A stretch of 64,000 bases of DNA from Candidatus Nomurabacteria bacterium (GTDB lineage: Bacteria; Patescibacteriota; Minisyncoccia; Phycocordibacterales; UBA9973), in NCBI GenBank assembly GCA_943350875.1, contig CALRAL010000001.1, forward strand, positions 68,992 to 132,991. The letters run 5' to 3'. The notes beneath the pieces are model-generated. The model did no database searches, was not told the origin of the DNA, and worked only from the letters and a program-made list of their open reading frames with translations. Made by a program: the position numbers and the translations under genes. Shown in pieces: positions 5,446 to 63,581 of this stretch (positions are counted from its first letter, which is position 1; each line of letters begins with the position of its first letter).

Positions 5446-5448
5446 ACT

Positions 5449-7122
5449 ATGCAAACAGAAACCAGGCAATGCAAAAAATGCAATCGAAGTTTTGTTCTAG
5501 AGCAAGACGATTTTTCTTTTTACGAAAAGATGAAAGTTCCTGTACCGAATATCTGCCCAGACTGTCGTTTTAAAATGAGGGCCATTTTTAGAAATGAACG
5601 TACTTTATATAATAGGACCTGTAATTTATGCAATCGCTCTATTATTACAATGTATAATCCGAATTCTCCTTACACTGTCTATTGTAATGACTGTTGGATT
5701 TCTGATAAATGGGATCCATATTCTTACGCTATGGATTATGATTCATCTAAATCTTTTTTTGAACAATTAAAAGAACTTATTATAAAAGTTCCAAAATCTG
5801 CCACTTATAGTAGTATTTCTGTTGGGGTGAATATCAACAGTGAATATGCTAATTTTGCAGGAGGTAATAAAGATGGGTATTTGATTTTTAATTGTGGACC
5901 AAATAATGAAAACATAGCTTATTCCCGCGGTGTAATAAAAAGTCGAGATGTTTTTGATGTTTATTATGCAGATGAAATAGAAAATACTTATGAAGGAGTT
6001 AGTGTTCATAAAAGTAATGGAATAGCTTGGGGTCAAAATGTATCCGATTGTATAGATTCACGTTTTATTTTGAATTGTTCAGGATGTCAGAATTGTTTTG
6101 GTTGTGTAAACTTAAGGCATAAATCTTATCATTTTTTTAATGAACCTCTTGAAAGAAATGAATGGTTAAAACGTGTATCAGAAATTTCTGGTAGTTTTAA
6201 AAAGACAGAAGAAATGAAAAAAAAGTTTACAGAATTCTCTCTTAAATTTCCATATCGAAGTAGTAATAACCTAAAAGTCACTAATTGTGAGGGAGATTAT
6301 ATTTTTGAATCAAAGAATTGTTATAAATGTTTTGAACTTTCTTTTTGTGAAGACATACGACATTCTTTTTCAGTAAAACGTGGTAAAGATTGTACTGATA
6401 TGATAGGTCATTGTCGCAGTTCAGAACTTCTATATAATGGAGTTGGAGTTGGGGCTGGCTCAAGGAATGTTATATGTTCATGGTGGGTTGAAAGTTCCCA
6501 AGATGTTCAATATTCATTTGCCACTCGTCAAAGTAATGATTGTGTAGGATGTGATGGTATAAAAAATGGTTCTTTTGTAATTCTAAATAAAAAATATACC
6601 AAAGAAGAATATCAAAAAATAAAAAATAATATTACAAAGGAGTTAAAAGATAAAAATATCTACGGTGATTTTTTCCCTACTGAACTTTCTTTCTTTGCTT
6701 ACAATGAAACAATTGGGCAAGATAATATGCCTATGACTAAAGAAGAAACAATCAAACAAGGTTTTCGTTGGGAAGATAATATTCAAAAAACAAAAAGAAA
6801 AGAAACCTTAAAGCCAGAGGAAATTCCAGATAATATAAGAGATGTATCAGATAATATTTTAAATGAAGTATTAGTTTGCATTAAATGTTCTAGAAATTAT
6901 CGGTTAATTAAACGCGAACTTGAATTTTACAAAAAAATGCTTATTCCTATCCCTAGAGAATGTTGGAATTGCCGTTTTACAAATCGCATAATTCGACGCG
7001 GGTCTTATAAATTCTTTGATCGTAAATGTTCAAATTGTAATAAGGATATACATACTAATTTGACGGAAAAGGTGGCACCAATAGTATATTGCGAGAAATG
7101 TTATCAGCAGGAAGTGATATAA
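5449..7122 (+). CDS. Large Cys-rich protein with tandem zinc-ribbon pairs at both termini (paralog 1 of 3)
   Basis: N-terminus CKKC...FYEKMKVPVPNICPDCR...LYNRTCNLC...VYCNDCW. C-terminus CIKC...FYKKMLIPIPRECWNCR...CSNC...IVYCEKCYQQEV. Central Cys-rich pseudo-repeats (NCSGCQNCFGCVNL...). Paralogs at 53207 and 59745. Confidence 0.8.
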   Translation: MQTETRQCKKCNRSFVLEQDDFSFYEKMKVPVPNICPDCRFKMRAIFRNERTLYNRTCNLCNRSIITMYNPNSPYTVYCNDCWISDKWDPYSYAMDYDSSKSFFEQLKELIIKVPKSATYSSISVGVNINSEYANFAGGNKDGYLIFNCGPNNENIAYSRGVIKSRDVFDVYYADEIENTYEGVSVHKSNGIAWGQNVSDCIDSRFILNCSGCQNCFGCVNLRHKSYHFFNEPLERNEWLKRVSEISGSFKKTEEMKKKFTEFSLKFPYRSSNNLKVTNCEGDYIFESKNCYKCFELSFCEDIRHSFSVKRGKDCTDMIGHCRSSELLYNGVGVGAGSRNVICSWWVESSQDVQYSFATRQSNDCVGCDGIKNGSFVILNKKYTKEEYQKIKNNITKELKDKNIYGDFFPTELSFFAYNETIGQDNMPMTKEETIKQGFRWEDNIQKTKRKETLKPEEIPDNIRDVSDNILNEVLVCIKCSRNYRLIKRELEFYKKMLIPIPRECWNCRFTNRIIRRGSYKFFDRKCSNCNKDIHTNLTEKVAPIVYCEKCYQQEVI

Positions 7123-13475: not shown

Positions 13476-13721
13476 ATGCAAGACAAAGAATTACATAGAT
13501 TGTTCAAGAATCAAATGGAAGAAAACCGCAAGAAAAAAGAAGGCACGTATGTCGAAAAAGTAGACACAAAAAAGATTACCCAAAACAATGGAAACAAAGA
13601 AGAGCAAAAAGAAATCGAAACACCTATCACGCATATAAGAAAAGCCATTGGATCTAATACTGTTGCTAATGCGCTCGGCATTGTTGATCCCGCAAATCCA
13701 TTTGGTATTGGTACTTGGTAA
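13476..13721 (+). CDS. Hypothetical small charged protein
   Basis: ORF only; Lys/Glu-rich. Confidence 0.3.
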   Translation: MQDKELHRLFKNQMEENRKKKEGTYVEKVDTKKITQNNGNKEEQKEIETPITHIRKAIGSNTVANALGIVDPANPFGIGTW

Positions 13722-13759
13722 GCCAAAAATAGAGTTTCTTGTAAAAGATCTCTATTTTT

Positions 13760-14425
13760 TTGTTCCTTTTTTCCAAAAAATTTGCTATACTATATACAAT
13801 GATAATCACATATTTTGGCAAACAATTTTTCAAGATTGGGCAAGGGGATATGACTATCGCTTTTAACCCTGTCAGTAAAGCTTCAAAAACAGGCGTGTCA
13901 ACCCATTTCGGGGCAGATATAGCCCTCGTGACCACAAACCATCCTGACTATAACGGCGTAGAACAGCTCTCGCATGGAGACAGAGAGCCTTTTTGTGTGA
14001 CGGGCCCAGGGGATTACGAGATTAAAGAAATTTTCATTAAAGGTTTGGCGTCTGGCGGGGTGATTGATGGTAAAAAATACATCAATACGATTTACTCGCT
14101 GGCTATCGACGGGATAAATATCGTTTTTCTAGGAGCCTTGTCTGATCCTGAATTTACCAAAGAAGCAGGCGAGGCCATAGATAGCGTAGATATACTTTTT
14201 GTGCCGGTGGGTGATAAGGGCTTACTGGACGCGAAATCTTCTGCTAAACTAGTATCATCTATCGAGCCAAAAATAATTATCCCGATGGATTATGATAGCG
14301 CATCTCTCAAAGCGTTCTTGAAAGAGATGGGGGAAGAAGGGGCCGAAGTAGTGGATAAATTAACATTGAAAAGGAAAGATTTAGAAGGTAAAGAAGGGGA
14401 AATAATAGTTTTATCAGCGATTTAA
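13760..14425 (+). CDS. Putative MBL-fold (UPF0173-like) metal-dependent hydrolase; the start is probably internal (~13850)
   Basis: DIALVTTNHPDYNG resembles a degenerate HxHxDH motif; the call is weak. Confidence 0.35.
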   Translation: MFLFSKKFAILYTMIITYFGKQFFKIGQGDMTIAFNPVSKASKTGVSTHFGADIALVTTNHPDYNGVEQLSHGDREPFCVTGPGDYEIKEIFIKGLASGGVIDGKKYINTIYSLAIDGINIVFLGALSDPEFTKEAGEAIDSVDILFVPVGDKGLLDAKSSAKLVSSIEPKIIIPMDYDSASLKAFLKEMGEEGAEVVDKLTLKRKDLEGKEGEIIVLSAI

Positions 14426-14429
14426 TTAT

Positions 14430-14678
14430 ATGAAAAAAGTAATTCATTATTTAAGGAAGCAACCAGAGCAAACAAGAAAGCATATTTTGCATATTTCGAT
14501 CGGGGCTATCACGGTCATTATGGTGGTGCTTTGGGGGTACAGTTTAGCTAAGAGCTTCAGTGGTCCGGAAGTAAAAGCAAAACTACAAAATGATCTGAAG
14601 CCATTTTCTGTATTAAAAGATAATATCACAAATGGTTATAATAATATTTCTGGATCAGTCAATCGATCAACCCAATAA
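14430..14678 (+). CDS. Small membrane protein
   Basis: One TM (ISIGAITVIMVVLWGY) after a basic N-terminus. Confidence 0.4.
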   Translation: MKKVIHYLRKQPEQTRKHILHISIGAITVIMVVLWGYSLAKSFSGPEVKAKLQNDLKPFSVLKDNITNGYNNISGSVNRSTQ

Positions 14679-14681
14679 TTT

Positions 14682-17147: not shown

Positions 17148-17170
17148 ATGTCAAAGACCGTCTTTGACAT
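17148..17170. repeat. Left terminal hairpin palindrome of the IS200-like unit
   Basis: 11-bp arms with a 1-nt centre; the tnpA stop codon lies inside it. Confidence 0.8.
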
Positions 17171-17798
17171 CAAAAATTAGTGTTTCTTTTATGAAACTTT
17201 CTTGATCTCCAAAAGTCGATAATAATAGTTCTTTATTTATTATCGATAAATTTCTGTTATTAGCGAAATCATCATAACTATTCCACAAATGATCTGATGG
17301 ATGTTTTACAATTTTATCTTTTACTGGATTCATGTGTATATAAGTCGATGTCCACATTAATTGTGGATTATTTTCTATTAATACAGATTTGAATTTATCT
17401 TGGAATATGTGCCCAACTCGTTTGTATTTTTTATTTATATATTTTACATAACTTGTGCAAAGTTTTGAAATCAATTTTGAAACGGATATATCTCCAACTT
17501 GTTCAATAAGTAGATGAAAGTGATTAGGCATGAGACAGAAAGCATGCAGTTTAAAATTGTTTTTATTTGTTTCAGTAATCCTAATTCTAGAGTAGGGCAT
17601 TGAAGTTATTTTTTCTTTATTTAGTTCTTCTTCTGTAAATCCTAGACATAATCCAAGTCTAAAGAGAAAAGCTTTGTAATCTTGCTCGTCAAGAAATATT
17701 TTTTCCTTATTATTGCCTCTATTATAAACATGAAAAATATGTCCGGAGGCAAATTTTTTGTAATCTCTGTTATTTATAGATACAGTATAGCATGTCAA
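17151..17798 (-). CDS. IS200/IS605-family Y1 (HUH) transposase TnpA / REP-associated tyrosine transposase-like
   Basis: SGHIFHVYNRGNNKEKIF N-terminal motif, HUH motif LMPNHFHLL, and C-terminal catalytic-Tyr block YIHMNPVKDKIV...W.SY. Confidence 0.8.
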   Translation of the reverse strand: MTCYTVSINNRDYKKFASGHIFHVYNRGNNKEKIFLDEQDYKAFLFRLGLCLGFTEEELNKEKITSMPYSRIRITETNKNNFKLHAFCLMPNHFHLLIEQVGDISVSKLISKLCTSYVKYINKKYKRVGHIFQDKFKSVLIENNPQLMWTSTYIHMNPVKDKIVKHPSDHLWNSYDDFANNRNLSIINKELLLSTFGDQESFIKETLIFDVKDGL

Positions 17799-19693: not shown

Positions 19694-20704
19694 ATGCAAA
19701 AAAAACTGCCAAAATTATTTATTTTTGTTCTAATATTACAAACTATTTTTTTTACCAGGGTTTTTGCGATTCAAACTGAGAATCCTGCCACTCCAGCTTT
19801 GATTGTAAATACTTTTGGCTATTCGGTATTGGGCACGAATTCTTTTAGGCTCGAAGGTACTTATGATGGCAATGTAAATAAAAGAGAGCTCACATATTAT
19901 TTTGAATATGAGACACAAAAGCAAGGATTGCGTGGAGATGGTCTGCATACATACATAGAGAATTCAAAAACGATTCCCATAGTTCAACATCTTTGTTCTA
20001 TAAGTGTGATATGTGACAAGGGACATATTACAGATCATTTTGAGACCACTATCAATCTACTTGATGGCAAGACTTATCGTTTTAGAGCAGTAGCGTATTT
20101 TAATGGTCACGGAGCAGAGCAAAAGTTCTACGGGCAGTGGCTGATATTGACCACTAACCAAGCATTTTTCGGTGGCAATGGCGTCTTATTAACTCCTCCC
20201 TATACTGTAAACAGCAATAACACAGCTGTGCCTTTTACAGGTATAAATTCAACAAATAATAATCCTACTTATAATCCCCTAAATACTGGTCGTTTAAATC
20301 CTACGATTGAATTTAATCCATATCTAGGCGGTACAGGAAATACAAATTCAGATACACCAGTCAAAGGTAATGGTTTGGTGCATTGTGGCAAATCTAATGT
20401 CGACAGTGCGGGTAATCCTGTCACTGCAGATACAGCAGAATGTGGCTTTAATGACATATTTGTGCTCATCAATAACATCTTACATTTTATACTTTTTATC
20501 ATAGCTATACCCATCTCTGCTATTATGTTTGCTTATGCAGGATTTCTGTATCTGACCTCGGGCGGAGGAGAGCAAGTCAGCAAAGCCAAGGGGATATTTA
20601 GCGGGGTGGCGACAGGGCTTGCTATAGCGGCGGGAGCTTGGCTCATAATACATAGCATATTATTACTTTTAGGATATCAAGGTGAATGGTTTGGCTTACA
20701 GTAA
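19694..20704 (+). CDS. Secreted protein with a C-terminal VirB2/TrbC-like two-helix pilin-type domain
   Basis: Signal peptide. The C-terminus (IPISAIMFAYAGFLYLTSGGGEQVSKAKGIFSGVATGLAIAAGAWLII) has the same two-TM plus charged-loop plan as the four small genes downstream. Confidence 0.45.
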   Translation: MQKKLPKLFIFVLILQTIFFTRVFAIQTENPATPALIVNTFGYSVLGTNSFRLEGTYDGNVNKRELTYYFEYETQKQGLRGDGLHTYIENSKTIPIVQHLCSISVICDKGHITDHFETTINLLDGKTYRFRAVAYFNGHGAEQKFYGQWLILTTNQAFFGGNGVLLTPPYTVNSNNTAVPFTGINSTNNNPTYNPLNTGRLNPTIEFNPYLGGTGNTNSDTPVKGNGLVHCGKSNVDSAGNPVTADTAECGFNDIFVLINNILHFILFIIAIPISAIMFAYAGFLYLTSGGGEQVSKAKGIFSGVATGLAIAAGAWLIIHSILLLLGYQGEWFGLQ

Positions 20705-20782
20705 ACCCCACCTGGCCTCCCCTTGTCAGGGGAGGAAAAATAGGTAGTCCCCCTGACAAGGGGGATTTAGGGGGTTAGATTT
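20705..20782. repeat. GC-rich nested-hairpin element, family C, intergenic
   Basis: ctccccttgtcaggggag ... tccccctgacaaggggga ... ttagggggttag; a second copy at 36786-36858 is ~85% identical. Confidence 0.8.
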
Positions 20783-20816
20783 TGCTAAAAATTTTAGTTA
20801 GTATTATAATTAAAGT

Positions 20817-21179
20817 ATGAATTTTATCAAAAATCTTTTCAAAAGAATAAACATAATCGCCCTCATCCTTTTTTTGCCGCTTTTTTCTGTTTCTGCAGAA
20901 TGTGCTGATAAAACAAAAGTTTGTAATCCAATAGGAGCTACTGATATAAATGGATTGATCAAAGACATCTTGATCGGAGTGATAAAGATCAGCATCCCTG
21001 TCATAGCGCTGGCTGTCATATATTCTGGCTTTCTCTTTGTGTCTGCCAGAGGTAGTACGGAAACTTTAGATAAAGCGAAAAAGACTTTGCTTTATACCCT
21101 CATCGGCTCGGCTTTACTACTAGGATCTTGGGCCATAGCGCAACTTATATCTAACACAGTATTAGCGTTACAAATATGA
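20817..21179 (+). CDS. VirB2/TrbC-like pilin-type small membrane protein 1
   Basis: 120 aa: signal peptide, Cys pair, TM1, charged loop (SARGSTETLDKAKK), TM2. Confidence 0.45.
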   Translation: MNFIKNLFKRINIIALILFLPLFSVSAECADKTKVCNPIGATDINGLIKDILIGVIKISIPVIALAVIYSGFLFVSARGSTETLDKAKKTLLYTLIGSALLLGSWAIAQLISNTVLALQI

Positions 21180-21610
21180 AAAAACTAATAAAAACAAAAT
21201 ATCTAGGTTTGACTGCAGGGTTACTTTTAATAATGCCAAATGTTTCCTTTGCAGCTGGTTGCACTCTTCCAGATAATAGTCAGACGAAGATAGCTGATGT
21301 TTTAGATTATGGCACTTGCTTGATCAGTAGCTCTGTTATACCGCTCATTATGTCTTTGGCTACAGCTTCATTTATCTGGGGAGTGGTGCAATTTGTTATA
21401 AATGGCGCTGAGGATACAGAAAAGCGGGAAAAGGGTAAGATGTTTATGATCTGGGGAATATTAGCCTTGACGGTGATGGTGGGCGTGTGGGGGCTGGTGT
21501 CTATCGTAGGGCATACTTTTGGGATAACAAATGTGATCCCGCAAACTGTAAATAATAGTAATTCCGGAACACCTCCACATGTATTGTATGGAGGCGATAA
21601 TGGTGCATAG
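21176..21610 (+). CDS. VirB2/TrbC-like pilin-type small membrane protein 2
   Basis: 144 aa with the same plan; shared KxxMIWGIxxLTVMVGVWGLVSIVGHTFGI block. Confidence 0.45.
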   Translation: MKKLIKTKYLGLTAGLLLIMPNVSFAAGCTLPDNSQTKIADVLDYGTCLISSSVIPLIMSLATASFIWGVVQFVINGAEDTEKREKGKMFMIWGILALTVMVGVWGLVSIVGHTFGITNVIPQTVNNSNSGTPPHVLYGGDNGA

Positions 21611-52456: not shown

Positions 52457-52599
52457 GTTGCGGTTTCGTGCAAGAGAAAATTTCCGGTGCGAACGTTTTT
52501 TTAACGTGAGCTGGGAATAGCGGGGGATGTGGTCTGACCACATAATCAACCTTTGCAAGTCTATTTTAGAAATTTTTTGTTTTATGTTATATTACTCAT

Positions 52600-53238
52600 A
52601 TGCAACAAGATGAACCTGCCCGCAATGCTTTCAGCACAGCTGATGCAGGCGGGGAAATTAAAAAAGAGGAACAATTACCCGAAGAAAGCCCAGATTCCGA
52701 GGTTGTAGAGTTTGAATTCAATGAAGACGGGGAAGAGGATCTGAAAAAGACTTTAAAGAAGCTTCGGGCTGATTTGAAGGCTTGTAAAGCTGAAAAGGCA
52801 GAGTATTTGACCGGCTGGCAGAAAGAGCGAGCTGATTTTGTTAATTATAAAAAAGAGGAAGACGACAGGAAAACCATGTTTTCAGAATCAGTACGAGAGC
52901 GAATGCTCACTCGCTTTTTAAATGTGATGGATAGCTTCAATATGGCATTCCAAAACAAAGAAGCTTGGGAAAAAGTAGATGAGAACTGGCGTAAAGGTGT
53001 AGAATATATTCACAGCCAGTTCAACACTGTTTTTGAAGAATATGGAGTAAAAGAGATAGGTGAAGTGGGGGAGAGTTTTGATCCAAATATTCACCAGCCG
53101 GTAGAAATGATAAAAACCGACCAGAAAGATTCTGATCACAAAGTGGCTGTAGTTATCCAGAAAGGGTATAAACTTGGCGAGCGTGTTATCCGTCCGGCGA
53201 GAGTGAATGTTTATGAATATCATGAACAAAGAGAATAA
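52600..53238 (+). CDS. grpE: Nucleotide exchange factor GrpE (the N-terminus is built from a family A repeat)
   Basis: GrpE coiled-coil plus C-terminal beta domain; N-terminus MQQDEPARNAFSTADAGGEI. Confidence 0.85.
   Translation: MQQDEPARNAFSTADAGGEIKKEEQLPEESPDSEVVEFEFNEDGEEDLKKTLKKLRADLKACKAEKAEYLTGWQKERADFVNYKKEEDDRKTMFSESVRERMLTRFLNVMDSFNMAFQNKEAWEKVDENWRKGVEYIHSQFNTVFEEYGVKEIGEVGESFDPNIHQPVEMIKTDQKDSDHKVAVVIQKGYKLGERVIRPARVNVYEYHEQRE
52615..52653 (+). repeat. Family A GC-rich palindromic element at the grpE 5' end
   Basis: cctgcccgcaatgctttcagcacagctgatgcaggcgggg. Confidence 0.8.
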
Positions 53239-54922
53239 AACTTGTCAAAACTGTAAAAAAGATTTCACAATAGAACCTGATGATTTTTCATTTTATGAAA
53301 AAATAAAAGTCCCTCCACCGACTTTTTGTCCAGAATGTAGATTTCAACGTAGGTATGCTTGGAGAAATGAAATTACACTCTATCGAAGACCATGTGATTT
53401 GTGTGGAAAAAGTTCTGTTACAATTTACTCTCCAAAAAAATCTTATAAAGTATATTGTCCTAATTGTTGGTGGGGGGATGGATGGGATGCGAAGGAATCT
53501 TTTCAAGATTTTGACTTTTCACGTCCGTTTTTTGAACAATTTCAAGAACTTCAATTTAAAATTCCAAGAATAGCTCTTTTAACCAAAAATAGTGTTAATT
53601 CAGAATACACTAATCATTCAGGGGATAATAAAAATTGTTATATGTGTGTTTCTACTTTTTATTCTGAAAATATAATGTACTCAAATAATATTTGGGAAAA
53701 AGGGCAGGATTTATGTGATTGTACAATGGTGATAAAAAATGGAGTTTTGTCTTACGAATGTATAGATTCTTCTGATATTTATAATTGTCAGTTTTGTATA
53801 CTTTTAAAAAATTGTACTGATTGTTTTTATTGCTATGACTTGCATAATTGTCAAAATTGTTTTTTATCTTTTAATTTAAGAAACAAAAATTATATGATTT
53901 TAAATCAACAATATTCTAAAGAAGAATATTTTAAGAAAATTAAAAATTTTAATCTAAATTCCAATAATTCAAGACAAAATCTTTATAAGCAATTTTTAGA
54001 TTTAATGAAAAATAAAGCATTGCATAAATTTGCTATTATTGAGAAATCGGTAAATTCTTTTGGAAATATGCTTTATAATTCAAAAAACGCTAATCAGGTT
54101 TTTGACTCAGACCATGTAGAAGATACCAAATACGGCATAATACTACCTGGTGTCCAAAATTCGATGGATGTTTGCCATGTTGGTTTTAATTGTGAACTTA
54201 CCTATGAAAGTCATGCTATTGTAAGATCATCTCGTGTTTTATTTTCTCATTTATCCTATGATAATAATGATATTCAGTATTGTGATTCGTGTCATTATAG
54301 TGATAATTTGTTTGGTTGTTGTGGAATAAAGAAAGGAAGTTATATGATTTTTAATAAAAAATATTCCAAAGAAGAATATCTAAAGTTAAAAGAAAAAATA
54401 ATTGAACACATGAAAAGAACAGGAGAGTATGGAAATTTCTTTCCACCCAAACTTTCACCATTTGGCTACAATGAAAGCCAAGCTCAAGTTTATTTACCAA
54501 TGGCAAAAGAAAAAGCTTTATCTTTTGGTTTTAATTGGGAAGATGATATGCCCGGAACCCACGGAAAAGAAACTACGGATTCAAAAAATATATCGGATAA
54601 TATTTTTGAAGTTTTAGATTCCATAACTAATGAAATATTAAAATGTGAAGATTGTGGTAAAAATTACAATATAATTCTAGCAGAATTACAATTTTATAAA
54701 AATGAAAATATTCCTATTCCACATTTTTGTTACAAATGTCGTTATAAAAAAAGAATAGCATTAAGATTACCAAGAAAACTTTGGCACAGGTCTTGTATGT
54801 GTGATAAAATTGGTCATTTTCATGGAGATGATAAATGCAATGTAGAATTTGAGACGAGTTATGCTCCAGAAAGGCCAGAAATAGTGTATTGTGAAAAATG
54901 TTATCAGCAAGAGATTTATTAA
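53207..54922 (+). CDS. Large Cys-rich protein with tandem zinc-ribbon pairs at both termini (paralog 2 of 3); the start probably lies at ATG 53213-53219 and overlaps the grpE stop
   Basis: CQNCKKDFTIEPDDFSFYEKIKVPPPTFCPECRFQRR...LYRRPCDLC...VYCPNCWWGDGWD. C-terminus CEDC...FYKNENIPIPHFCYKCR...YAPERPEIVYCEKCYQQEIY. Confidence 0.8.
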   Translation: MFMNIMNKENKTCQNCKKDFTIEPDDFSFYEKIKVPPPTFCPECRFQRRYAWRNEITLYRRPCDLCGKSSVTIYSPKKSYKVYCPNCWWGDGWDAKESFQDFDFSRPFFEQFQELQFKIPRIALLTKNSVNSEYTNHSGDNKNCYMCVSTFYSENIMYSNNIWEKGQDLCDCTMVIKNGVLSYECIDSSDIYNCQFCILLKNCTDCFYCYDLHNCQNCFLSFNLRNKNYMILNQQYSKEEYFKKIKNFNLNSNNSRQNLYKQFLDLMKNKALHKFAIIEKSVNSFGNMLYNSKNANQVFDSDHVEDTKYGIILPGVQNSMDVCHVGFNCELTYESHAIVRSSRVLFSHLSYDNNDIQYCDSCHYSDNLFGCCGIKKGSYMIFNKKYSKEEYLKLKEKIIEHMKRTGEYGNFFPPKLSPFGYNESQAQVYLPMAKEKALSFGFNWEDDMPGTHGKETTDSKNISDNIFEVLDSITNEILKCEDCGKNYNIILAELQFYKNENIPIPHFCYKCRYKKRIALRLPRKLWHRSCMCDKIGHFHGDDKCNVEFETSYAPERPEIVYCEKCYQQEIY

Positions 54923-55020
54923 CAACCTTGCAGAAGCAAGGCTTCTGCACAATGTTTACCACTTTTCTGAATAAGTGGTATAATAAATTTAAAGGTCGGG
55001 GTTAGTTCTACTCTAATTTT

Positions 55021-55326
55021 ATGGTATTTGTTTATACTACTTGTGTTGATAAAAACGAAGCAGAGACTCTAGGCAAGCTCATCATAGATAAAAAGTTGGG
55101 TGCGTGTGTTGATTATTGGCCAATTAACTCTATGTATAATTGGAAGGGGGCTTTGAGGCATTTGTCCCAAGTGATGCTTTCAATAGCTACTTTTGAGAAT
55201 CATTTGGAAGATGTAAATGATCTTATTTCCAAGCATCATAGTTATTCTGTGCCAATGATCGCTGGAGTGGATGTTCGCAGAATCAATCGCGCTTATCGGG
55301 AATGGATGATGGCTGAAGTTGTCTAG
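55021..55326 (+). CDS. cutA: Divalent-cation tolerance protein CutA
   Basis: MVFVYTTCVDKNEAETLGKLIIDKKLGACV... Confidence 0.7.
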   Translation: MVFVYTTCVDKNEAETLGKLIIDKKLGACVDYWPINSMYNWKGALRHLSQVMLSIATFENHLEDVNDLISKHHSYSVPMIAGVDVRRINRAYREWMMAEVV

Positions 55327-55333
55327 ATTATTT

Positions 55334-55870
55334 TTAATTTTTTATCGCTTCTAAAAAAGCGAGTCTAGTTTCTTCGTCTAATTTATCTGTAACTATTATC
55401 ATAAGTTCTGTAGTGAACCCCAAATCTTTTTTAATATTTATAAATAGATTTTCGTAAGGGTAAGGGGAGATCCAAGCAGAATTCTTTAAACATACAAAGC
55501 CAGCTTTTTTTAATAAATAACGAAGTGATTCACGTTCACTTTTTCTACTCTCTGGAATATCCAAAAGTATAATTCTCCAGAATCCGTCCCAGACAGTGTT
55601 CACTAGAGTAGTGTCATCTTCTAATTTCAAAGTATTTATTTTCTTTTTTCCTAGAGTTGTGAGGCGGGCATAGTTATTTTGCCCGGAATATGAGTTTTCC
55701 ACAAGTCCTGCCTCCCGGAGACTTTTTAAGGAGCGGGTAATAGCGTATCTAGCCCCCTCCTTGTTGAGGAGGGGGTTGGGGGTGGTGATTAGTTTTTCTT
55801 GCAATTCTGGCACAGAAACAGCTGTCTTTTCACCTAGTATTTTCAATATCTTTTTGGAATAGTTGCTCAT
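55334..55870 (-). CDS. PaaX-like winged-helix regulator (paralog of 2977-3522) carrying an in-frame GC hairpin insert
   Basis: WDGFWRIILLDIPESRKSERESLRYLLKKAGFVCLKNSAWISPYPY. Confidence 0.55.
   Translation of the reverse strand: MSNYSKKILKILGEKTAVSVPELQEKLITTPNPLLNKEGARYAITRSLKSLREAGLVENSYSGQNNYARLTTLGKKKINTLKLEDDTTLVNTVWDGFWRIILLDIPESRKSERESLRYLLKKAGFVCLKNSAWISPYPYENLFINIKKDLGFTTELMIIVTDKLDEETRLAFLEAIKN
55751..55786. repeat. Family C-like GC-rich hairpin inside the regulator CDS. It encodes TTPNPLLNKEG.
   Basis: CCCCCTCC-TTGTTGA-GGAGGGGG perfect hairpin followed by ttgggggtggtg. Confidence 0.7.
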
Positions 55871-55882
55871 TTGATTTGCTTG

Positions 55883-55937
55883 ACCCTATCGCTCGCGAGC
55901 GATAGGGTTGACATACTTACATCCTATCATATATACT
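55883..55937 (+). promoter_or_regulatory. dnaK promoter with a perfect 26-bp palindrome overlapping the -35 box
   Basis: ACCCTATCGCTCGCGAGCGATAGGGT then TTGACA-17-TATATA. Confidence 0.5.
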
Positions 55938-56042
55938 CTATTTGACAAGTATTTCGTGTTCGCGAAAAACTTGCAAAAGATTATAAGTAAGTATATACTA
56001 TGTAAAATTTAACAAAATTATAAGTTTAATAATTAAAAACAT

Positions 56043-57932
56043 ATGAAAATAATAGGTATAGATTTGGGTACAACAAATTCAGCTGTCGCTATCATAGAAG
56101 GAGGACAGCCAAAGATTATTGAGAATATAGAAGGGAACCGCACGACTCCTTCGGTTGTGGCTATCGCGAAAAATGGGGATAGATTAGTAGGGCTCCTTGC
56201 AAAAAGGCAAGCTGTGACGAATCCAGAAAATACTGTATATGGTATCAAGCGTTTTATGGGTCATAATTTTGATGATCCCGAAGTACAGAAAGATTTAAAG
56301 AATGCATCTTTCAAAGTTCAAAAATCAACTAATGGCGGAGTGGAAGTAAAAATAGGAGATAAGTGGATGCGTCCAGAAGAAATATCTGCGATGATTTTAG
56401 CGAAAATAAAAGCGGACGTAGAAGTTAAGACGGGAGAGAAGATCACTGAAGCAGTCATCACTGTGCCAGCGTATTTCAATGATGCTCAGAGAAAGGCTAC
56501 AAAAGACGCAGGACAAATAGCAGGACTCGATGTGAAGCGTATTATCAATGAGCCGACGGCTGCAGCACTTGCTTATGGTTTTAATAAAAAGAAAAATGAA
56601 AAGATAGTGGTGTATGACTTTGGAGGAGGCACATTTGACGTATCCGTGCTTGAAATAGGGGATGATGTTATAGAAGTAAAGTCCACAGATGGGGACAGTC
56701 ACCTCGGAGGTCGTGATATCGATCACAAGATCATAAATTGGATTGCGGAAGAATTCAAAAAGACTTCAGGAGTAGATGTACGTGGAGATAAACTTGCTCT
56801 TCAACGTCTTGATGAATCTGCAGAAAAAGCAAAAATAGAGCTTTCTACTGCCGTGGAAACTGAAATAAATATTCCATTTATTACTTCCACTCCACAAGGT
56901 CCTCAACACTTACTTTTGAAAATGACTCGAGCTCAACTTGAATCTCTTACTGATGAATATGTTTCTCGTTCCATAGAGATAACAAAGCGCGCGATGAGTG
57001 CTTCCGGTTTTAAAATGGAAGAAATGAATGAAATAATCATGGTTGGAGGTCAGACTAGAATGCCAAAGATCGTAGAAGAAGTGAAAAAGCTTTTTGGCAA
57101 GACTCCAAACCTTTCTATCAATCCCGATGAAGTCGTAGCTCTCGGTGCTGCGGTGCAAGCGGGAGTATTACAAGGAGATGTGCGCGACGTGCTTCTTCTT
57201 GATGTCATACCTCTTTCACTGGGGATAGAGACATTAGGAGGAGTGGCGACAAAGTTAGTTGAAAGAAATACAACTATTCCTTCTTCAAAATCCCAAGTAT
57301 TCTCAACTGCGGCTGACAATCAAACTTTGGTAGAAATACATATCGTCCAAGGTGAACGTCCTATGGCGTCTGACAACAAATCTCTCGGTAGATTTATTTT
57401 GGATGGAGTGCCACCTGCTCCTCGCGGTATTCCGCAAGTGGAAGTTTCTTTTGATGTGGATGCAAATGGTATCTTGAATGTGACTGCAAAGGATAAAGCT
57501 TCTGGTAAGACTCAATCTATTAAAATAGAGGCAAGTTCAGGATTAAAAGATGAGGATATTAAAAAGATGCAAGCAGATGCAGAAATACATGCTGAAGAAG
57601 ATAAAAAGAAAAGAGAAAATGTCGATATAAAAAACACTGCGGAGATGATCATGTACACAGCAGAAAAAGCTTTGAAAGATAATGATGCAAAAATTCCGGA
57701 AGATTTGAAGAAGACTGTAAATGATAAAATAACTGCTCTACGTGGTTTAAAAGATGGTTCAGACATAGAGGCTATTAAAAAGGCCACCGAAGAATTGTCT
57801 TCTGAAATGTCAAAAATCGGTGAAGCTATGGCAAAAGCTGGTGCTACTCCAGATGAAGGACCAGCTACTCCTCCTGAAGAACAACCAACTGAAGTCCGTG
57901 ATGCTGATTCCAAAGAAGAAGACAAGAAATAA
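56043..57932 (+). CDS. dnaK: Molecular chaperone DnaK (Hsp70)
   Basis: [36 protein letters not shown]... Confidence 0.95.
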
Positions 57933-57963: not shown

Positions 57964-59721
57964 ATGTATCAAGAAATATTACCTTACATTTTAATTCTAG
58001 GATCTCTGCCACTTTTTTATAAAGTATTAAAAGTTGTTTTACAAGGTAAATTTGGTGTTGACCTCATAGCCATAGTCGCCATTCTTGCATCTATTTGGGC
58101 AGGGCAATATTTTGCAGGAGTGGTTATTTTACTTATGCTCTCAGGGGGAGAAGCGTTAGAGGACTATGCAGAAAAAAGGGCAAAGAGAGAATTGACTCAA
58201 CTTTTAAATAAGGCACCAAATGTTGCACACATAAAAGACGGGAATGATAAATTAAGAAATGTAAAAGTTGAAGAAGTAAAAATTGGAGATATTTTAATTA
58301 TAAAGCCCGGAGAAGTAGTACCAGTAGATGGAGTAGTGACTAGTGGCATATCTGATTTAAATGAAGCAGTGATCACAGGGGAGAGTTTACCCGTGGAGAA
58401 AAAAGCTGGGTCATTGATTTTTAGCGGTTCGGTAAATGGAGAACATATTTTAGAAATTAGGACGATAAAAAATAGTGCTGACAGTAAATATCAAATAATT
58501 GTAAAATTGGTAAAAGAAGCACAAGAATCCAAATCCCCGGTGGTCAGGTTGGCTGATCGTTATGCTGTATTTTTTAATATTGCCACTTTTACATTAGCAA
58601 TTTTGACTTGGTTTTTATTTAAAGATCCTATTCGTGTTCTAGCCGTACTCGTTGTGGCTTCTCCTTGTCCTCTTATTCTAGCGACACCGATAGCGATGAT
58701 TTCAGGTATCAGTAAAGGAGCCAGTCGTGGAATAGTTATAAAAAATGGAAGCGCGTTAGAGAAATTAGGAGGAGTTAAAGGTTTAATATTTGATAAAACG
58801 GGTACACTAACACTTGGTATCCCAGAAGTTTCAAATATTATTTCTACTTCAGAATTAAAAGAAAATGAGATACTAAATATTTCTGCTTCAATGAATCAGC
58901 TTTCCTTACATATATTTGCTAGATCATTAGTAGAATATGCTCAAAGCAAATCCCTTGATTTGGATTATCCAGAAGGTTTTAAAGAAATCATTGGTGAAGG
59001 TGTGGAGGCTAAAATAAAAGATCGTCAATATTTTTTGGGTAAATTAAGTTTTATTTCTGAGCAGGGAATTAATTTTAAAGGTGATATAAAAGATAAATTT
59101 GAAACTTTTGAAGACGAAGGTAAAACAGCAATATATTTGAGTGACACAAAGAACTTGCTGGGCTATATAATCTTTTCAGATATTATAAGGCCAGAAACAA
59201 AGGCGATGTTTGCTTCATTAAAAGATCATGATGTATCTAGGTTAGTGATGTTGACTGGAGATAAAGAAATAGTAGCAAAAAATATTGCCCAAAGTTTGGG
59301 AATCAAAGAATATTATTCTGAACTATTACCTGAACAAAAAGTGGAATGGATAAAAAAGAATCAAGAAAGTTATGGGCCGATGGCGATGATTGGAGATGGA
59401 GTAAATGATGCTCCTGCGTTAGCTACTTCCAGTGTGGGTATAGCCATGGCGAGTCATGGTGCGACTGTGGCGTCAGAGACGGGGGATGTAGTTATCTTAG
59501 TGAATAACATAGAACGTGTACATGATGCATTGCATATTGCCCAAAGTGCTGTGCATCTTGCAAAACAAGGTATTTTTATTGGCATGGGCATCAGTATTGG
59601 TCTCATGATTTTTTCACTTTTTGGATATATTACCCCAATATTTGGGGCAATATTACAAGAGATTTTGGATGTGGGAATTATCTTAAATGCTCTCCGCCTT
59701 AATTTTGAAAAGATAAAATAA
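57964..59721 (+). CDS. Compact P-type cation-transporting ATPase (no N-terminal metal-binding domain)
   Basis: TGES actuator-like TGESLPV, phosphorylation site FDKTGTLT, hinge GDGVNDAPAL. Confidence 0.85.
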   Translation: MYQEILPYILILGSLPLFYKVLKVVLQGKFGVDLIAIVAILASIWAGQYFAGVVILLMLSGGEALEDYAEKRAKRELTQLLNKAPNVAHIKDGNDKLRNVKVEEVKIGDILIIKPGEVVPVDGVVTSGISDLNEAVITGESLPVEKKAGSLIFSGSVNGEHILEIRTIKNSADSKYQIIVKLVKEAQESKSPVVRLADRYAVFFNIATFTLAILTWFLFKDPIRVLAVLVVASPCPLILATPIAMISGISKGASRGIVIKNGSALEKLGGVKGLIFDKTGTLTLGIPEVSNIISTSELKENEILNISASMNQLSLHIFARSLVEYAQSKSLDLDYPEGFKEIIGEGVEAKIKDRQYFLGKLSFISEQGINFKGDIKDKFETFEDEGKTAIYLSDTKNLLGYIIFSDIIRPETKAMFASLKDHDVSRLVMLTGDKEIVAKNIAQSLGIKEYYSELLPEQKVEWIKKNQESYGPMAMIGDGVNDAPALATSSVGIAMASHGATVASETGDVVILVNNIERVHDALHIAQSAVHLAKQGIFIGMGISIGLMIFSLFGYITPIFGAILQEILDVGIILNALRLNFEKIK

Positions 59722-59744: not shown

Positions 59745-61469
59745 ATGCAATCTGAGCCTAGAGTTTGTCAAAATTGTAAAAAAGAATTCACAATCGAATC
59801 AGACGATTTTGGATTTTATGAGAAAATAAAAGTTCCTCCACCGACTTTTTGTCCAAATTGTAGAGCTCAACGTCGAAATGCTTGGAGGAATACTTTTACT
59901 TTATATTCTCGAAAATGTGATTTGTGTGCAAAATCAGTCATTTCTCTTTATGCTCCAGATTCTGAAATAATAGTTTATTGTAATAAATGTTGGTGGAGTG
60001 ATAAGTGGGATCCAAAATCTTATGCTCAAGATTATGACTTTTCTAAACCATTTTTTGCGCAATTTATAGATTTTGTTAAAAAAGTTCCACACATTTCAGT
60101 AGTCAATGATAACGGGATTGCTAGTTTGAACTGTGAATATACCCATGATTGGTGGTTTTCAAAGAACTGCTATATGGCATTTTCTGGCTGGTATGTGGAG
60201 AATGTTATGTATAGTTATTTTATAACTGCTGGTAGAAATATTATGGATACTATGATCAATATGGCTGAATCAGAATACTTATATGAATGTATAAATTGTT
60301 CGCATGGTTATAATGTTAAATATTCACAATATGCTGGAGCTTGTATTGATTCTCAATTTCTTTATGATTGTCGAGACTGCTCAAATTGTTTTATGTCTTT
60401 TGGACTTAGAAATAAAAAATATTTTTTTAAAAATCAGCAATATACGAAAGGAGAGTATGAAAAAATATTAAATAGTTATAAACTTGAAACTTTTTCTGGT
60501 GTAAAAAAAGCGCAAGAAGAATTTGATAAACTCATTTTAAATTATCCTCGTAGGTATGCTTGGCATAAACAAAATAAAGATTGTTCTGGTGATGTGATTT
60601 CTTATAGCAAAAATACTAAAAACTGTTTCATTGCTAAAAGATGTGAGAATTGTAGATATTCAGAATATCCCACTAAGGACAAGGATTGTTATGATATAAC
60701 GATGACTGGTGAAACATCTGAATGTTATGAAGGAGTTGTTGTGGATCATTCGCAGTTAAACTTTTTTGGAATTTTCTCTGTTAAAAGTCAGGATATAAGA
60801 TATACGCAACATTGTCACTTTTCAAAACATCTTTTTGGTTGTGTTGCGCTTCGTAGTAATAGTTATTGTATTTTCAATAAGCAATATACAAAAGAAGAAT
60901 ATGATACTTTAGTAAGAAAAATTATTGAGCAAATGAATGAAATGCCTTATGTGGATAAAAATGGTTGTGAATATCGTTATGGGGAATTTTATCCAATTGA
61001 ACTTTCTTTGTTTGGATATAATGAAACTCTTGCATGTGAACAGATTCTACTTTCAAAGGAAGAAGCTCTAAATAAAGGTTATAAGTGGCAAGACAATTTA
61101 CAACGAACAACTAAGAAAGAGACATTATTACCACAAAATATTCCAGATTCAATTAAAGATATTAGTGATAATGTCATACAAGAAATACTTAGTTGTGTTG
61201 AATGTAAAAGGAATTATAAAATTGTTCAAAATGAATTAATTTTTTATAAAAAAATGCAGATTTCTATTCCAAGGAAATGTTTTTATTGTCGTCATGCAAA
61301 TAGAATAAAACACACAAATCCTTTTAAACTTTGGCATCGATCTTGCATGTGCGACAAAACAAATCATGGGCATGAAGGAAATTGTCTAAACGAATTTGAA
61401 ACAAGCTATGCTCCAGAAAGACCTGAGATAGTTTATTGTGAAAAATGTTATCAGCAAGAGATTTATTAG
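59745..61469 (+). CDS. Large Cys-rich protein with tandem zinc-ribbon pairs at both termini (paralog 3 of 3)
   Basis: CQNCKKEFTIESDDFGFYEKIKVPPPTFCPNCRAQRR...LYSRKCDLC...VYCNKCWWSDKWDP. C-terminus CVECKRNYKIVQNELIFYKKMQISIPRKCFYCR...YAPERPEIVYCEKCYQQEIY. Confidence 0.8.
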   Translation: MQSEPRVCQNCKKEFTIESDDFGFYEKIKVPPPTFCPNCRAQRRNAWRNTFTLYSRKCDLCAKSVISLYAPDSEIIVYCNKCWWSDKWDPKSYAQDYDFSKPFFAQFIDFVKKVPHISVVNDNGIASLNCEYTHDWWFSKNCYMAFSGWYVENVMYSYFITAGRNIMDTMINMAESEYLYECINCSHGYNVKYSQYAGACIDSQFLYDCRDCSNCFMSFGLRNKKYFFKNQQYTKGEYEKILNSYKLETFSGVKKAQEEFDKLILNYPRRYAWHKQNKDCSGDVISYSKNTKNCFIAKRCENCRYSEYPTKDKDCYDITMTGETSECYEGVVVDHSQLNFFGIFSVKSQDIRYTQHCHFSKHLFGCVALRSNSYCIFNKQYTKEEYDTLVRKIIEQMNEMPYVDKNGCEYRYGEFYPIELSLFGYNETLACEQILLSKEEALNKGYKWQDNLQRTTKKETLLPQNIPDSIKDISDNVIQEILSCVECKRNYKIVQNELIFYKKMQISIPRKCFYCRHANRIKHTNPFKLWHRSCMCDKTNHGHEGNCLNEFETSYAPERPEIVYCEKCYQQEIY

Positions 61470-61520: not shown

Positions 61521-63581
61521 ATGGAACTTCCAGAATTACCCCCAAATAAAGACCTTACATATATTGGCCAAACGACTTTTAGGGATAAAAATACACTTTT
61601 TGGTATAAAGCGTAAAGACAGGCGTCAGCATGTGTATATCTTGGGTAAGTCAGGTACCGGTAAATCGGCGCTGATGTTTAATATGATTATCCAAAATATC
61701 CAGAATGGCGATGGTGTTTGTATGGTGGATCCGCACGGGGAGAATGTCGAAGCTATTTTATCTGCTATTCCTCCACACAGAATGAAAGATGTAGTTTATT
61801 TTAATCCAGCGGACACTGATTTTCATATTGGTTTCAATGTGCTCGAACTCATTGATCCAAAATATAAACATTTAGTGGCGTCAGGACTGATGGGAATATT
61901 TACCAAGATTTGGGCCAATGCATGGAGTGCTCGAATGGAATACATTTTAAATAATACTATCTTGGCACTACTAGATACTCCAGGGTCCACGCTTCTAGGT
62001 ATCCCTCGTATGTTAGTGGATAAAGATTATCGTCAGAAAATAATTTCAAATTTAAAAGACCCTGTTATTAAAGCTTTTTGGGTGCATGAATATGAAGCAT
62101 GGCAGGAGAAATTCAGGAATGAAGCTATCGCACCGATTCAAAATAAAGTCGGACAATTCCTTTCTACTTCTATCATCAGAAATATTGTCGGGCAAGCAAA
62201 AAGCACGATAGATATTTTTAATATTATGAATGAAGGGAAGATTTTCTTGGTAAACGTTTCTAAAGGACGTATCGGGGAGGACAATTCTTCTCTCTTAGGA
62301 GGAATGATTATTACTAAGATTCAGCTAGCTGCTATGGAGCGCGTGCGTATTTCAGAAGAGAATAGGAAAGATTTTTATCTATATGTCGATGAATTTCAAA
62401 ACTTTGTGACTGAAGCTTTTGCTGGGATTTTGTCTGAAGCTAGAAAATACAGGTTGAATTTAACTGTAGCGCATCAATACACGGCGCAACTGGTGGTGGA
62501 TAAAAACTCAAGTGTCAGGGATGCTATTTTCGGTAACGTGGGTACAATGATTGTTTTTAGAGTGGGTGCAGATGATGCTAAATTTTTAGAAAAAGAGTTT
62601 GAGCCGGAATTTATTCCTCAAGACATAGTGAACTTGCCAAATTTCCGTATTTATTTAAAGTTGATGATAGATGGTACTACTTCTAGACCATTTTCTGCCA
62701 AGACTTTGCCTCCAATGGTGAAATCTGGTAATAAACAAGTAGAAGACGAAGTGATCAGATCTTCTAGGAATTTATATTGCAAGCCAAAGGAAGTGGTAGA
62801 GAGAGAAATAAATAATTGGAGTGGCATGTCCTTGGGTAATGAAAATGATCCAGGTAGTATGGAAAAATTCGAAGCAGTTTGTTCTATTTGCAAGAAAAAC
62901 ACAACAGTTCCATTTAAACCAGAGCCAGGTAGACCTGTGTATTGTAGAGACTGTATAGCAAAGATGAAATCAGGAGAATTACAACCAGTAAAGGGTTCAA
63001 TGAATCAGATAAAATATGATGAATCAAAATTCTTCAAACCCTTGGCAGATTTAGGAATCGAATTTGAAAATAAAGAAGTGCAAAATAATTTGCAACCACA
63101 AAAACCTCAGAAAACCGGTATATTTTCTTCTATTAAAAAAGTTTTTCAAAAGCCATCTTTACACCCCCATAGTTCTTTTAAAGAAAAAACAGCTATTTTG
63201 GCTCAAACTAATCAGATAAAAGCTTCGCCCGTAGGTCTACAGCCGAGGGAAATTCCAAAAGAAAATCTAACTTTGAAAGAAATTTTAAATAAAACTTTAG
63301 CTGAAAAAGAGAAAGTTGTTCCAACTCCTATTTCTTTGAGTGAATTAAAACCCAAAATAGAACCAATAATACCAAATCATACTTCGAACGATCGCTCTGC
63401 GAGCCCAGAAGAGATGGATAAATTAAAAAATCTTATTTCTACTACAAAAGTAGAGGAAGTAAAGAAAGAACCTGCCCGCAATGCTTCGCAAAGCGATGCA
63501 GGCGGGGAAATCAAAGAAGAATCTCAAAAACAGTTGGTTAAAGAAGTGCCAGAAGATGTCTTAAAAAAGATTTTAGAGTAA
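61521..63581 (+). CDS. FtsK/HerA/TraD(VirD4)-superfamily P-loop ATPase (soluble) with C-terminal zinc ribbon
   Basis: Walker A ILGKSGTGKSALMFNMI, Walker B FYLYVDEFQNF, then ARKYRLNLTVAHQY. C-terminal CSICKK...PEPGRPVYCRDC. Family A repeat-encoded segment EPARNASQSDAGGEI near the C-terminus. Confidence 0.65.
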   Translation: MELPELPPNKDLTYIGQTTFRDKNTLFGIKRKDRRQHVYILGKSGTGKSALMFNMIIQNIQNGDGVCMVDPHGENVEAILSAIPPHRMKDVVYFNPADTDFHIGFNVLELIDPKYKHLVASGLMGIFTKIWANAWSARMEYILNNTILALLDTPGSTLLGIPRMLVDKDYRQKIISNLKDPVIKAFWVHEYEAWQEKFRNEAIAPIQNKVGQFLSTSIIRNIVGQAKSTIDIFNIMNEGKIFLVNVSKGRIGEDNSSLLGGMIITKIQLAAMERVRISEENRKDFYLYVDEFQNFVTEAFAGILSEARKYRLNLTVAHQYTAQLVVDKNSSVRDAIFGNVGTMIVFRVGADDAKFLEKEFEPEFIPQDIVNLPNFRIYLKLMIDGTTSRPFSAKTLPPMVKSGNKQVEDEVIRSSRNLYCKPKEVVEREINNWSGMSLGNENDPGSMEKFEAVCSICKKNTTVPFKPEPGRPVYCRDCIAKMKSGELQPVKGSMNQIKYDESKFFKPLADLGIEFENKEVQNNLQPQKPQKTGIFSSIKKVFQKPSLHPHSSFKEKTAILAQTNQIKASPVGLQPREIPKENLTLKEILNKTLAEKEKVVPTPISLSELKPKIEPIIPNHTSNDRSASPEEMDKLKNLISTTKVEEVKKEPARNASQSDAGGEIKEESQKQLVKEVPEDVLKKILE
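63471..63506 (+). repeat. Family A GC-rich palindromic element (shortened variant) inside the ATPase C-terminal region
   Basis: cctgcccgcaatgcttcgcaaagcgatgcaggcggg. Confidence 0.75.

Follow-up and report, generated by a model that had tools for sequence, protein, structure and literature searches.

The grpE gene of a Candidatus Nomurabacteria bacterium contains the start of a second gene, which encodes a cysteine-rich protein and lies in a neighbourhood of heat-shock genes. Does this position reveal how the protein is expressed and what it does? We addressed these questions in a 64,000-nucleotide stretch of the genome (contig CALRAL010000001.1, positions 68,992 to 132,991), hereafter the window, which holds three paralogous genes of this kind, named p1, p2 and p3; p2 is the one that overlaps grpE. 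A first-pass annotation of the window had proposed that p2 is translationally coupled to grpE and that its expression may be linked to stress. Taking the evidence together, we consider that p2 is probably best explained as a grpE-coupled member of a zinc-ribbon/beta-solenoid protein family, that the nesting of this family among chaperone genes is clade-specific, and that a putative ATPase partner is a tentative lead to its function.

Related loci are labelled with L-numbers (L001 and so on), L166 being the window's own genome read past the end of the window, and F denotes a copy of the family. A scan of one genome per species yielded 79 loci with relatives of p2, all of them in Nomurabacteria, Paceibacterota or Minisyncoccia-type metagenome-assembled genomes (MAGs), although some of these labels are evidently wrong. 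A metagenome scan anchored on a short gene for an ATPase resembling type IV coupling proteins (T4CP) yielded 80 loci, in which the anchor was 48–83% identical to the query; 68 of these loci were assessable.

The grpE–p2 junction

The open reading frame at 53207–54922 is real and starts before the grpE stop codon, as the first-pass annotation had stated. Its in-frame ATGs at 53207, 53213 and 53222 give overlaps with grpE of 32, 26 and 17 nt, respectively. ATG 53213, which had been preferred, is possible, but ATG 53222 fits better because seven residues then precede the first cysteine, a length shared with family members that overlap no other gene, including p1, p3 and the L007, L011 and L016 orthologues, and because the public gene call uses it (P0001, 566 aa; also in L166). 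The strength of Shine-Dalgarno sequences was uninformative for the choice of start, as the genome is essentially devoid of them.

The exact geometry of the junction, with one or more ATGs inside the GrpE tail (…RVNVYEY…) and the first cysteine codon 4 nt after the grpE stop, was found in 13 other loci, comprising 12 genome loci and the metagenome locus L102 (among them L001, L009, L013, L014, L015, L017, L018, L019, L027, L044 and L078). It is kept for p2-type copies (55–79% identical) and for a divergent type of about 30% identity (L001, L014, L017, L027, L044). Because the geometry recurs in other loci, the overlap is not a chance feature of one genome. In L007, a truncated mini-copy of ~240 aa (5055–5780), in which the N-terminal ribbon is fused to the C-terminal part, lies directly after grpE, and in L041 a short remnant of the C-terminus of a family copy (6748–6800) follows grpE. 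These copies indicate that the array of paralogs described below turns over while the junction persists.

Shine-Dalgarno sequences are nearly unused in the window, with a median predicted anti-Shine-Dalgarno duplex energy of 0 over 41 gene starts. A TATAAT-like box ends 5–8 nt (mostly exactly 6) before the ATG at 18 of 56 gene starts, compared with 4.9% of all ATGs; examples are the starts at 2977, 5449, 17869, 27453, 45818, 52600, 59745 and 61521. The combination of −10 boxes ~6 nt before ATGs with the near absence of Shine-Dalgarno sequences suggests widespread leaderless mRNAs. Such a box is present upstream of grpE (TATATT-N6-ATG), p1, p3 and the gene for a long ATPase, and no such box precedes any of the three candidate p2 ATGs. 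The spacing of exactly 6 nt is common to grpE, p1, p3 and 14 further genes in the window. The box 6 nt before the grpE ATG implies a leaderless grpE–p2 transcript and, given the missing box of p2 and the conserved junction, expression of p2 from the grpE transcript is most likely. As expected of operon partners, the two genes share a strand, p2 starts inside the upstream gene, no promoter or terminator intervenes, and the arrangement is conserved in relatives. A hairpin straddles the rpsI stop upstream, and another, directly after the p2 stop, likely marks the end of the grpE–p2 unit.

We propose that p2 would be transcribed on a bicistronic leaderless grpE mRNA. Ribosomes would terminate at the grpE stop, re-initiate 14–29 nt upstream and translate p2, which would thus be made together with GrpE. 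The gene arrangement is directly visible in the DNA, and its reading as co-transcription and re-initiation is supported by the conserved dual-coding junction, the missing −10 box and the near absence of Shine-Dalgarno sequences; the coupling suggested by the first-pass annotation thereby gains support. Overlapping gene pairs known to use termination and re-initiation are similar in that both genes share a strand, no promoter separates them, and the second gene starts a short distance before the first one stops. The grpE–p2 pair differs from these in its long overlap (17–32 nt, compared with the usual 1 or 4 nt) and its lack of a Shine-Dalgarno sequence, and here we infer the coupling.

A protein family with paired zinc ribbons and beta-solenoids

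Database searches with p2 returned more than 6401 matches, and all the named ones belong to Patescibacteria, where they are called hypothetical or 'zinc-ribbon domain-containing'. A profile search against 1.84 billion cluster representatives (50%-identity clusters) recovered 5060 relatives, 2192 of them at E ≤ 1e-30, and almost all are 540–600 aa long and match from end to end. Judged from these matches, the p2 family is very large and uncharacterised, and has been seen only in Patescibacteria (Parcubacteria-type lineages). Literature searches for the family returned nothing specific and no paper describing it. Full-length identity to p2 is 45% for p3 and 37% for p1.

No Pfam or NCBIfam model matched p2 above threshold, and a sequence profile search of the PDB gave nothing useful. 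Among 70 homologues, zf_Tbcl (PF13451) was found in 50 and zf_Tbcl_2 (PF23477) in 48 at E ≤ 0.1 (best E-values 1.7e-6 and 2e-9), and no other Pfam family recurs. The scores of p2 itself (13.6 bits for zf_Tbcl and 14.6 bits for zf_Tbcl_2) are below the Pfam gathering thresholds of 24 and 27 bits, and p1 and p3 reach 16.6 and 17.5 bits. The four terminal CxxC...CxxC units of most family members match these treble-clef/zinc-ribbon domains, but the domains are small, have no assigned function and cover less than a third of p2.

An AlphaFold2 model built with 70 sequences (pLDDT 84, pTM 0.86) comprises, in order, two zinc ribbons, a beta-solenoid and helix, a second beta-solenoid and helix, a linker, in which the motif YGEFFP…FGYNET is invariant, and two C-terminal zinc ribbons of zf_Tbcl and zf_Tbcl_2/LIM-like type. 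The architecture is pseudo-symmetric, with internal duplications detected by hhalign between the N- and C-terminal modules (probability 99.4) and between solenoids A and B (99.5), and it has no characterised relative. Cysteines 8, 11, 36, 39 and 58, 61, 79, 82 are invariant in the 70 homologues. p2 contains 35 cysteines and 14 histidines. Invariance is confined to the cysteines of the four ribbons, and those in the centre vary; the central CxxC run, considered as a possible Fe–S cluster site, is only partly conserved. We found no signal peptide or transmembrane segment (maximum 19-residue hydropathy 0.73–0.95); the N-terminal ribbon starts at residue 8, and we predict that p2 is a cytoplasmic zinc-binding protein.

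Comparison with known beta-solenoids, namely the curlin CsgA, insect and plant antifreeze/ice-binding proteins and left-handed beta-helix acyltransferases, revealed no sequence relation, structural Z-scores below 6 and no Foldseek match. Known beta-solenoids are secreted or enzymatic and lack zinc ribbons, in contrast to p2, which has neither a signal peptide nor a membrane segment. p2 does not belong to the Hexapep (left-handed beta-helix) or AFP repeat families, as there was no Pfam match and no strong structural match. A defence-system or phage origin of the family was rejected, since p1–p3 match nothing in PADLOC or PHROGs.

The ends of p2 and p3 are unusually similar. The last 70 nt of p2 (54853–54922) and of p3 (61400–61469) are identical at 62 of 70 positions, including a 35-nt identical run, and the last 24 amino acids are the same. 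Two more copies in the window genome likewise retain the C-terminal motif YAPERPEIVYCEKCYQQE(I/V)Y. This identity suggests strong constraint or gene conversion.

Tandem arrays of ancient paralogs

Copies of the family are co-directional, in 226 of 229 cases in genome loci and in 123 of 123 in metagenome loci (with the ATPase gene). Spacing is tight: the median gap is 36 nt, and 28 of 110 consecutive pairs overlap or abut. The median identity is 42% between paralogs in one locus, compared with 66% to the best match in another genome, and 96% of copies have their closest relative outside their own array. Since identity between genomes exceeds that within loci, the arrays consist of anciently diverged paralogs kept as orthogroups. 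An origin of the arrays by recent amplification within a lineage, or by gene conversion, was rejected, as the paralogs are older than the genomes compared. The long maintenance of the paralogs points to roles that are not redundant; they might, for instance, differ in specificity or form the subunits of a hetero-oligomer. p2 is the first unit of a variable, co-directional array of tandem paralogs that, in Nomurabacteria-like genomes, fills the grpE–dnaK spacer, and a second array, together with two soluble VirD4/TraG-like ATPases, fills the dnaK–dnaJ spacer.

Linkage to chaperone genes

The neighbourhood described in the first-pass annotation was confirmed in that the three paralogs are real and cutA, a PaaX-like regulator and dnaK (by Pfam matches) and the third paralog follow p2 within 5 kb. 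Among the genome loci, grpE is present in 18, and a family copy lies directly after it in 17. Between grpE and the divergent paaX–dnaK pair there are 0 to 5 copies, with none in L072 and L120. The order typical of the clade is rpsI – grpE – (F)n – paaX(−) – dnaK – T4CP-long – (F)n – T4CP-short – dnaJ. A J-domain search placed dnaJ after a short TraG-like ATPase (about 425–525 aa), which itself follows further family copies and the long ATPase. In L166, the long ATPase is followed by a small restriction/toxin islet, the short ATPase, two family copies and dnaJ, so the window genome has at least four copies between grpE and dnaJ. The islet, between the long and short T4CP-like genes (12231–15439), encodes a split EcoRI-type methylase, a GmrSD/HNH nuclease and a PemK toxin. 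At just 218 aa, the product of the L166 dnaJ (20782–21438) is short, and the CxxCxGxG zinc finger of its relatives is missing from it.

The first-pass annotation would have been refuted by a lack of conserved chaperone linkage in other genomes; instead, orthologues sit beside grpE and dnaK elsewhere, and the linkage is kept within this clade. It does not extend to the closest homologues of p2 outside it: those in Brennerbacteria (L080), Ryanbacteria (L081), Liptonbacteria (L082) and Staskawiczbacteria (L083) have no chaperone gene within 8–10 kb. Most copies are not beside chaperone genes; in the genome loci only 16 of 186 abut grpE, and 127 of 186 abut another copy.

One explanation of the linkage is that the cysteine-rich proteins function in heat shock or proteostasis, as stress-induced clients or co-factors of DnaK, GrpE or DnaJ. 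The clade-wide presence of two separate arrays inside a single grpE…dnaK…dnaJ locus, the number of copies between grpE and dnaJ and the conserved grpE overlap are consistent with such a role; so is the position of the module in L091 and L128, from two lineages further removed, where dnaK or dnaJ lies no more than ~6 kb away. We nevertheless consider it unlikely, given the off-locus homologues described above and the following observations. Like DnaJ of the hrcA–grpE–dnaK–dnaJ operon, p2 is cysteine-rich, predicted to bind zinc and encoded within the grpE–dnaK–dnaJ locus, but it has no J domain, HPD motif or CxxCxGxG repeats. A DnaJ-like co-chaperone was rejected because p1–p3 have no match to PF00226 or PF00684 and not one HPD or CxxCxGxG motif, and relatives keep a normal zinc-finger DnaJ. 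ClpB is encoded elsewhere in the window, unlinked.

The regulatory sequences also argue against a heat-shock role. The paaX–dnaK spacers of all related loci share a strongly conserved dnaK promoter and, downstream of it, an inverted repeat, which at 55945–55973 of the window reads ACAAGTATTTCG-N5-CGAAAAACTTG and whose consensus is ACAAGTATTTCG-N5-CGAAAnACTTG. In the spacer of the window (55883–55973), a perfect 26-bp palindrome at 55883–55908 abuts the −35 box. The inverted repeat is a candidate operator, possibly for the PaaX-like regulator, which would act as a heat-shock repressor that replaces HrcA/CIRCE. It occurs once in the window and nowhere near grpE or p2, so a heat-shock operator shared with dnaK was rejected; no CIRCE-like element was seen upstream of grpE. 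In many relatives the gap between rpsI and grpE is only 8–27 nt, suggesting that grpE is expressed with the ribosomal-protein operon.

The proposal of stress-linked expression is thus not supported, given that the dnaK repeat is absent from grpE, that grpE often closely follows rpsI and that the closest homologues in other lineages lie away from grpE. As far as sequence can tell, the evidence neither favours nor excludes a stress reading of grpE–p2. Their location among chaperone genes would be a clade-specific arrangement that co-expresses the paralogs with the DnaK system, and is no evidence of a heat-shock function.

Recurring ATPase and CutA1 neighbours

Across wider lineages, the recurring neighbour of the family is a T4CP-like ATPase, sometimes with CutA1, and not a chaperone. 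A family copy is adjacent to the short ATPase gene, or separated from it only by cutA, in 47 of the 68 assessable metagenome loci, and likewise in 32 of the 49 loci without dnaK or dnaJ in view. The arrangements vary, with copies upstream, downstream or on both sides of the ATPase gene and with cutA or the long ATPase gene between them. Neighbours that stay together through such reshuffling usually have a functional link. Between Brennerbacteria, another lineage and Nomurabacteria-type genomes, the short TraG-like ATPase is unusually conserved (74–80% identity). Examples of its gene lie in L080 (4151–5593), L085 (4756–6240), L013 (16386–17660) and L166 (15582–17162), and in some lineages (L080, L083) a DUF8128 protein precedes the ATPase or is fused to it.

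The ATPases match TrwB_AAD_bind, T4SS-DNA_transf, TraG-D_C and DUF87 and have a Walker A motif. The long ATPase contains a zf_Tbcl_2 finger above the Pfam threshold, and matches mad8/HerA (PADLOC) and phrog_5156 only through its ATPase domain. These proteins share the nucleotide-binding domain of canonical type IV coupling proteins (VirD4/TraG/TrwB), but lack their N-terminal transmembrane anchor (no transmembrane segment; maximum Kyte-Doolittle 19-residue hydropathy ≤ 1.13) and are not beside virB4 or a relaxase, neither of which was among the called neighbours in the loci read. A 2025 survey counted 5,713 VirD4-like genes in 2,918 Patescibacteria genomes, only 148 of them near virB4, and raised the possibility of exaptation (PMC12102498). 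The gene neighbourhoods make a functional partnership with orphan soluble T4CP-like ATPases, in some cases together with CutA1, the best-supported lead to the role of the family, albeit a tentative one. The paralogs may be non-redundant partners of an orphan T4CP-like motor and serve it as adaptors, as substrates or as components of a hetero-oligomer.

CutA1 occurs together with the T4CP-like gene and an array in L080 (Brennerbacteria) and L085 (another lineage) as well. Its recurrence beside arrays, and its position immediately downstream of p2, could be taken to mean that the cysteine- and histidine-rich proteins buffer or store zinc in concert with CutA1 and the P1B-type ATPase. The high content of both residues in p2 and a P-type ATPase with an SPC motif between dnaK and p3 would fit this idea. 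It is nonetheless very improbable: the invariant cysteines belong to structural zinc ribbons, the P-type ATPase is in this position in the window genome only, and adjacent CutA1 genes were counted in only 7 of 68 loci. To our knowledge, the function of CutA1 is itself unclear.

Alternatively, the family may be an expanding set of tandem genes that hitch-hikes neutrally in the permissive spacers of highly expressed operons, the overlap being a frozen accident, retained only because it also encodes the GrpE tail. Copies are found in many unrelated housekeeping contexts (mur cluster, scpB, prfA, an ABC transporter), their number between grpE and dnaK varies down to zero, decayed or truncated copies follow grpE in L007 and L041, and the surrounding rpoA–rplQ–rplM–rpsI–grpE synteny is just as conserved. 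Such neutrality is harder to reconcile with paralogs that are ancient, full length and maintained as orthogroups, with an adjacency to the T4CP-like ATPase that outlasts many rearrangements across lineages, and with p2 having lost, or never had, the promoter box that p1 and p3 possess. We rate it slightly below the already unlikely heat-shock role.

Other features of the window

The window is AT-rich (~35% GC) and gene-dense, with transcription almost entirely on the plus strand. The order of genes around p2 is rpoA, rplQ, rplM, rpsI, grpE, p2, cutA, PaaX_M-like (minus strand), dnaK, P-type ATPase, p3 and the long VirD4/TraG/HerA-like ATPase (Table 1).

Table 1. Positions of p2, its paralogs and neighbouring features in the window
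Feature	Position	Strand	Remarks
p1 (557 aa)	5449..7122	+	between Mur-ligase genes; own TATAAT box 6 nt upstream of ATG
grpE promoter-like site TTTAGA-17-TATATT	52565..52593	+	−10 box ends 6 nt before grpE ATG
grpE (212 aa)	52600..53238	+	Pfam GrpE, E 4.5e-38; stop TAA 53236-53238
Dual-coding overlap, grpE 3' end / p2 5' end	53207..53238	+	ATGs 53207, 53213, 53222
p2, Cys-rich family member	53222..54922	+	566 aa from ATG 53222; 571 aa from 53207
p2 N-terminal double zinc-ribbon (zf_Tbcl-like + zf_Tbcl_2-like)	53222..53491	+	
p2 beta-solenoid A	53534..53917	+	N-L-R-N-K-x-Y...Y-S-K-E-E-Y motif at its end
p2 beta-solenoid B	54017..54355	+	internal duplicate of A
p2 C-terminal double zinc-ribbon	54614..54919	+	homologous to N-terminal module
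Hairpin TGCAGAAGC-aag-GCTTCTGCA	54929..54949	+	directly after p2 stop; without T-run
cutA (CutA1)	55021..55326	+	Pfam
PaaX_M-like winged helix-turn-helix (wHTH) regulator	55334..55870	-	Pfam; divergent from dnaK in all related loci
dnaK promoter TTGACA-18-TATACT and conserved inverted repeat	55908..55973	+	
dnaK (HSP70)	56043..57932	+	Pfam
P-type ATPase	57964..59721	+	SPC and DKTGT motifs; no N-terminal metal-binding domain; resembles heavy-metal P1B (P1B-4) type
p3 (574 aa)	59745..61469	+	own TATAAT box 6 nt upstream of ATG
Long soluble VirD4/TraG/HerA-like ATPase	61521..63581	+	zf_Tbcl_2 finger; low-complexity tail

We also identified a GC-rich imperfect palindrome of ~40 nt, CCTGCCCGCAATGCTTTCAGCATAGCTGATGCAGGCGGGG, whose RNA hairpin has a predicted energy of about −20 kcal/mol. 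It occurs in the window at 4894–4937, 8477–8516, 52615–52658 (an in-frame 40-nt repeat within the N-terminal tail of grpE) and about 63470, and also in L011, L012, L014, L019, L027, L073, L117, L120, L122 and L146. The palindrome is always read in frame as P-A-R-N-A-F-S-I-A-D-A-G-G, in tolerant parts of unrelated genes: a Mur ligase, the end of murD, the N-terminal tail of GrpE, the tails of the T4CP-like ATPases, the linker of rpoA and the start of rpsI. Rickettsia palindromic elements or REP sequences are similar. The peptide shared by the GrpE and ATPase tails was rejected as a DnaK-binding motif, since it is this repeat inserted in many unrelated genes. An IS200-like Y1 transposase at 17151–17798 on the minus strand (Pfam Y1_Tnp, E 1.3e-11) could be a RAYT-type enzyme that mobilises the repeat.

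A second small PaaX_M-like regulator (E 1.5e-18) is encoded at 2977–3522 on the plus strand, where its neighbours are a low-molecular-weight phosphatase and the p1-containing mur cluster. A 336-aa open reading frame at 19694–20704 on the plus strand, beside a gene for a solute-binding protein, has a sub-threshold match to T4SS_pilin (PF18895, E 4e-5, 24 bits; cutoff 26.6). Among the related loci, the titles of L079 (Burkholderiales) and of several 'Saccharibacteria' loci (such as L009, L011 and L013) clash with their gene content. These loci have the Nomurabacteria-type rpoA…grpE…dnaK order and are 70–88% identical to the window, and probably represent mislabelled or misbinned MAG contigs.

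Discussion

Several points weigh against our preferred explanation, a grpE-coupled family member with clade-specific nesting among chaperone genes and a putative ATPase partner. A weak promoter inside grpE may exist, and p2 could start at any of its three ATGs as far as can be judged here, even if 53222 fits better. The solenoid regions of the model reach only moderate pLDDT values (64–75). Of the 68 ATPase-anchored loci, 21 have no adjacent family copy, and single copies lie in unrelated housekeeping operons (the mur cluster, after scpB, after prfA). Because the loci lack phylogenetic independence, inertia could account for the synteny within the clade, and the suggested ATPase partnership derives from gene neighbourhood and not from physical interaction with the ATPase or DnaK.

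A bolder proposal, which we regard as doubtful, is that the paralogs are the missing partners of the orphan, soluble VirD4/TraG-like ATPases, whether as cargo, as adaptors or as subunits of a hetero-oligomeric assembly, and that with these ATPases they would form an undescribed ATP-driven cytoplasmic machine that, in one clade, is wired into the grpE–dnaK–dnaJ locus. If so, production of the machine in that clade, and perhaps its folding or loading, would go hand in hand with the Hsp70 system.

A large fraction of bacterial diversity falls within Patescibacteria, and many of their conserved genes lack a known function. The family of p2 comprises thousands of sequence clusters, a genome carries from several to ten or more copies, and orthologues from different candidate phyla share ~60% identity, which places it among the more prominent unexplained protein families of the Parcubacteria-type lineages sampled. 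Its conserved dual-coding junction of 17–32 nt, in a genome with no Shine-Dalgarno sequences and with putative leaderless mRNAs, would offer a clean case for the study of translational re-initiation. The neighbourhood evidence names candidate partners for the orphan VirD4-like ATPases, and a clade in which the module sits with the Hsp70 genes.

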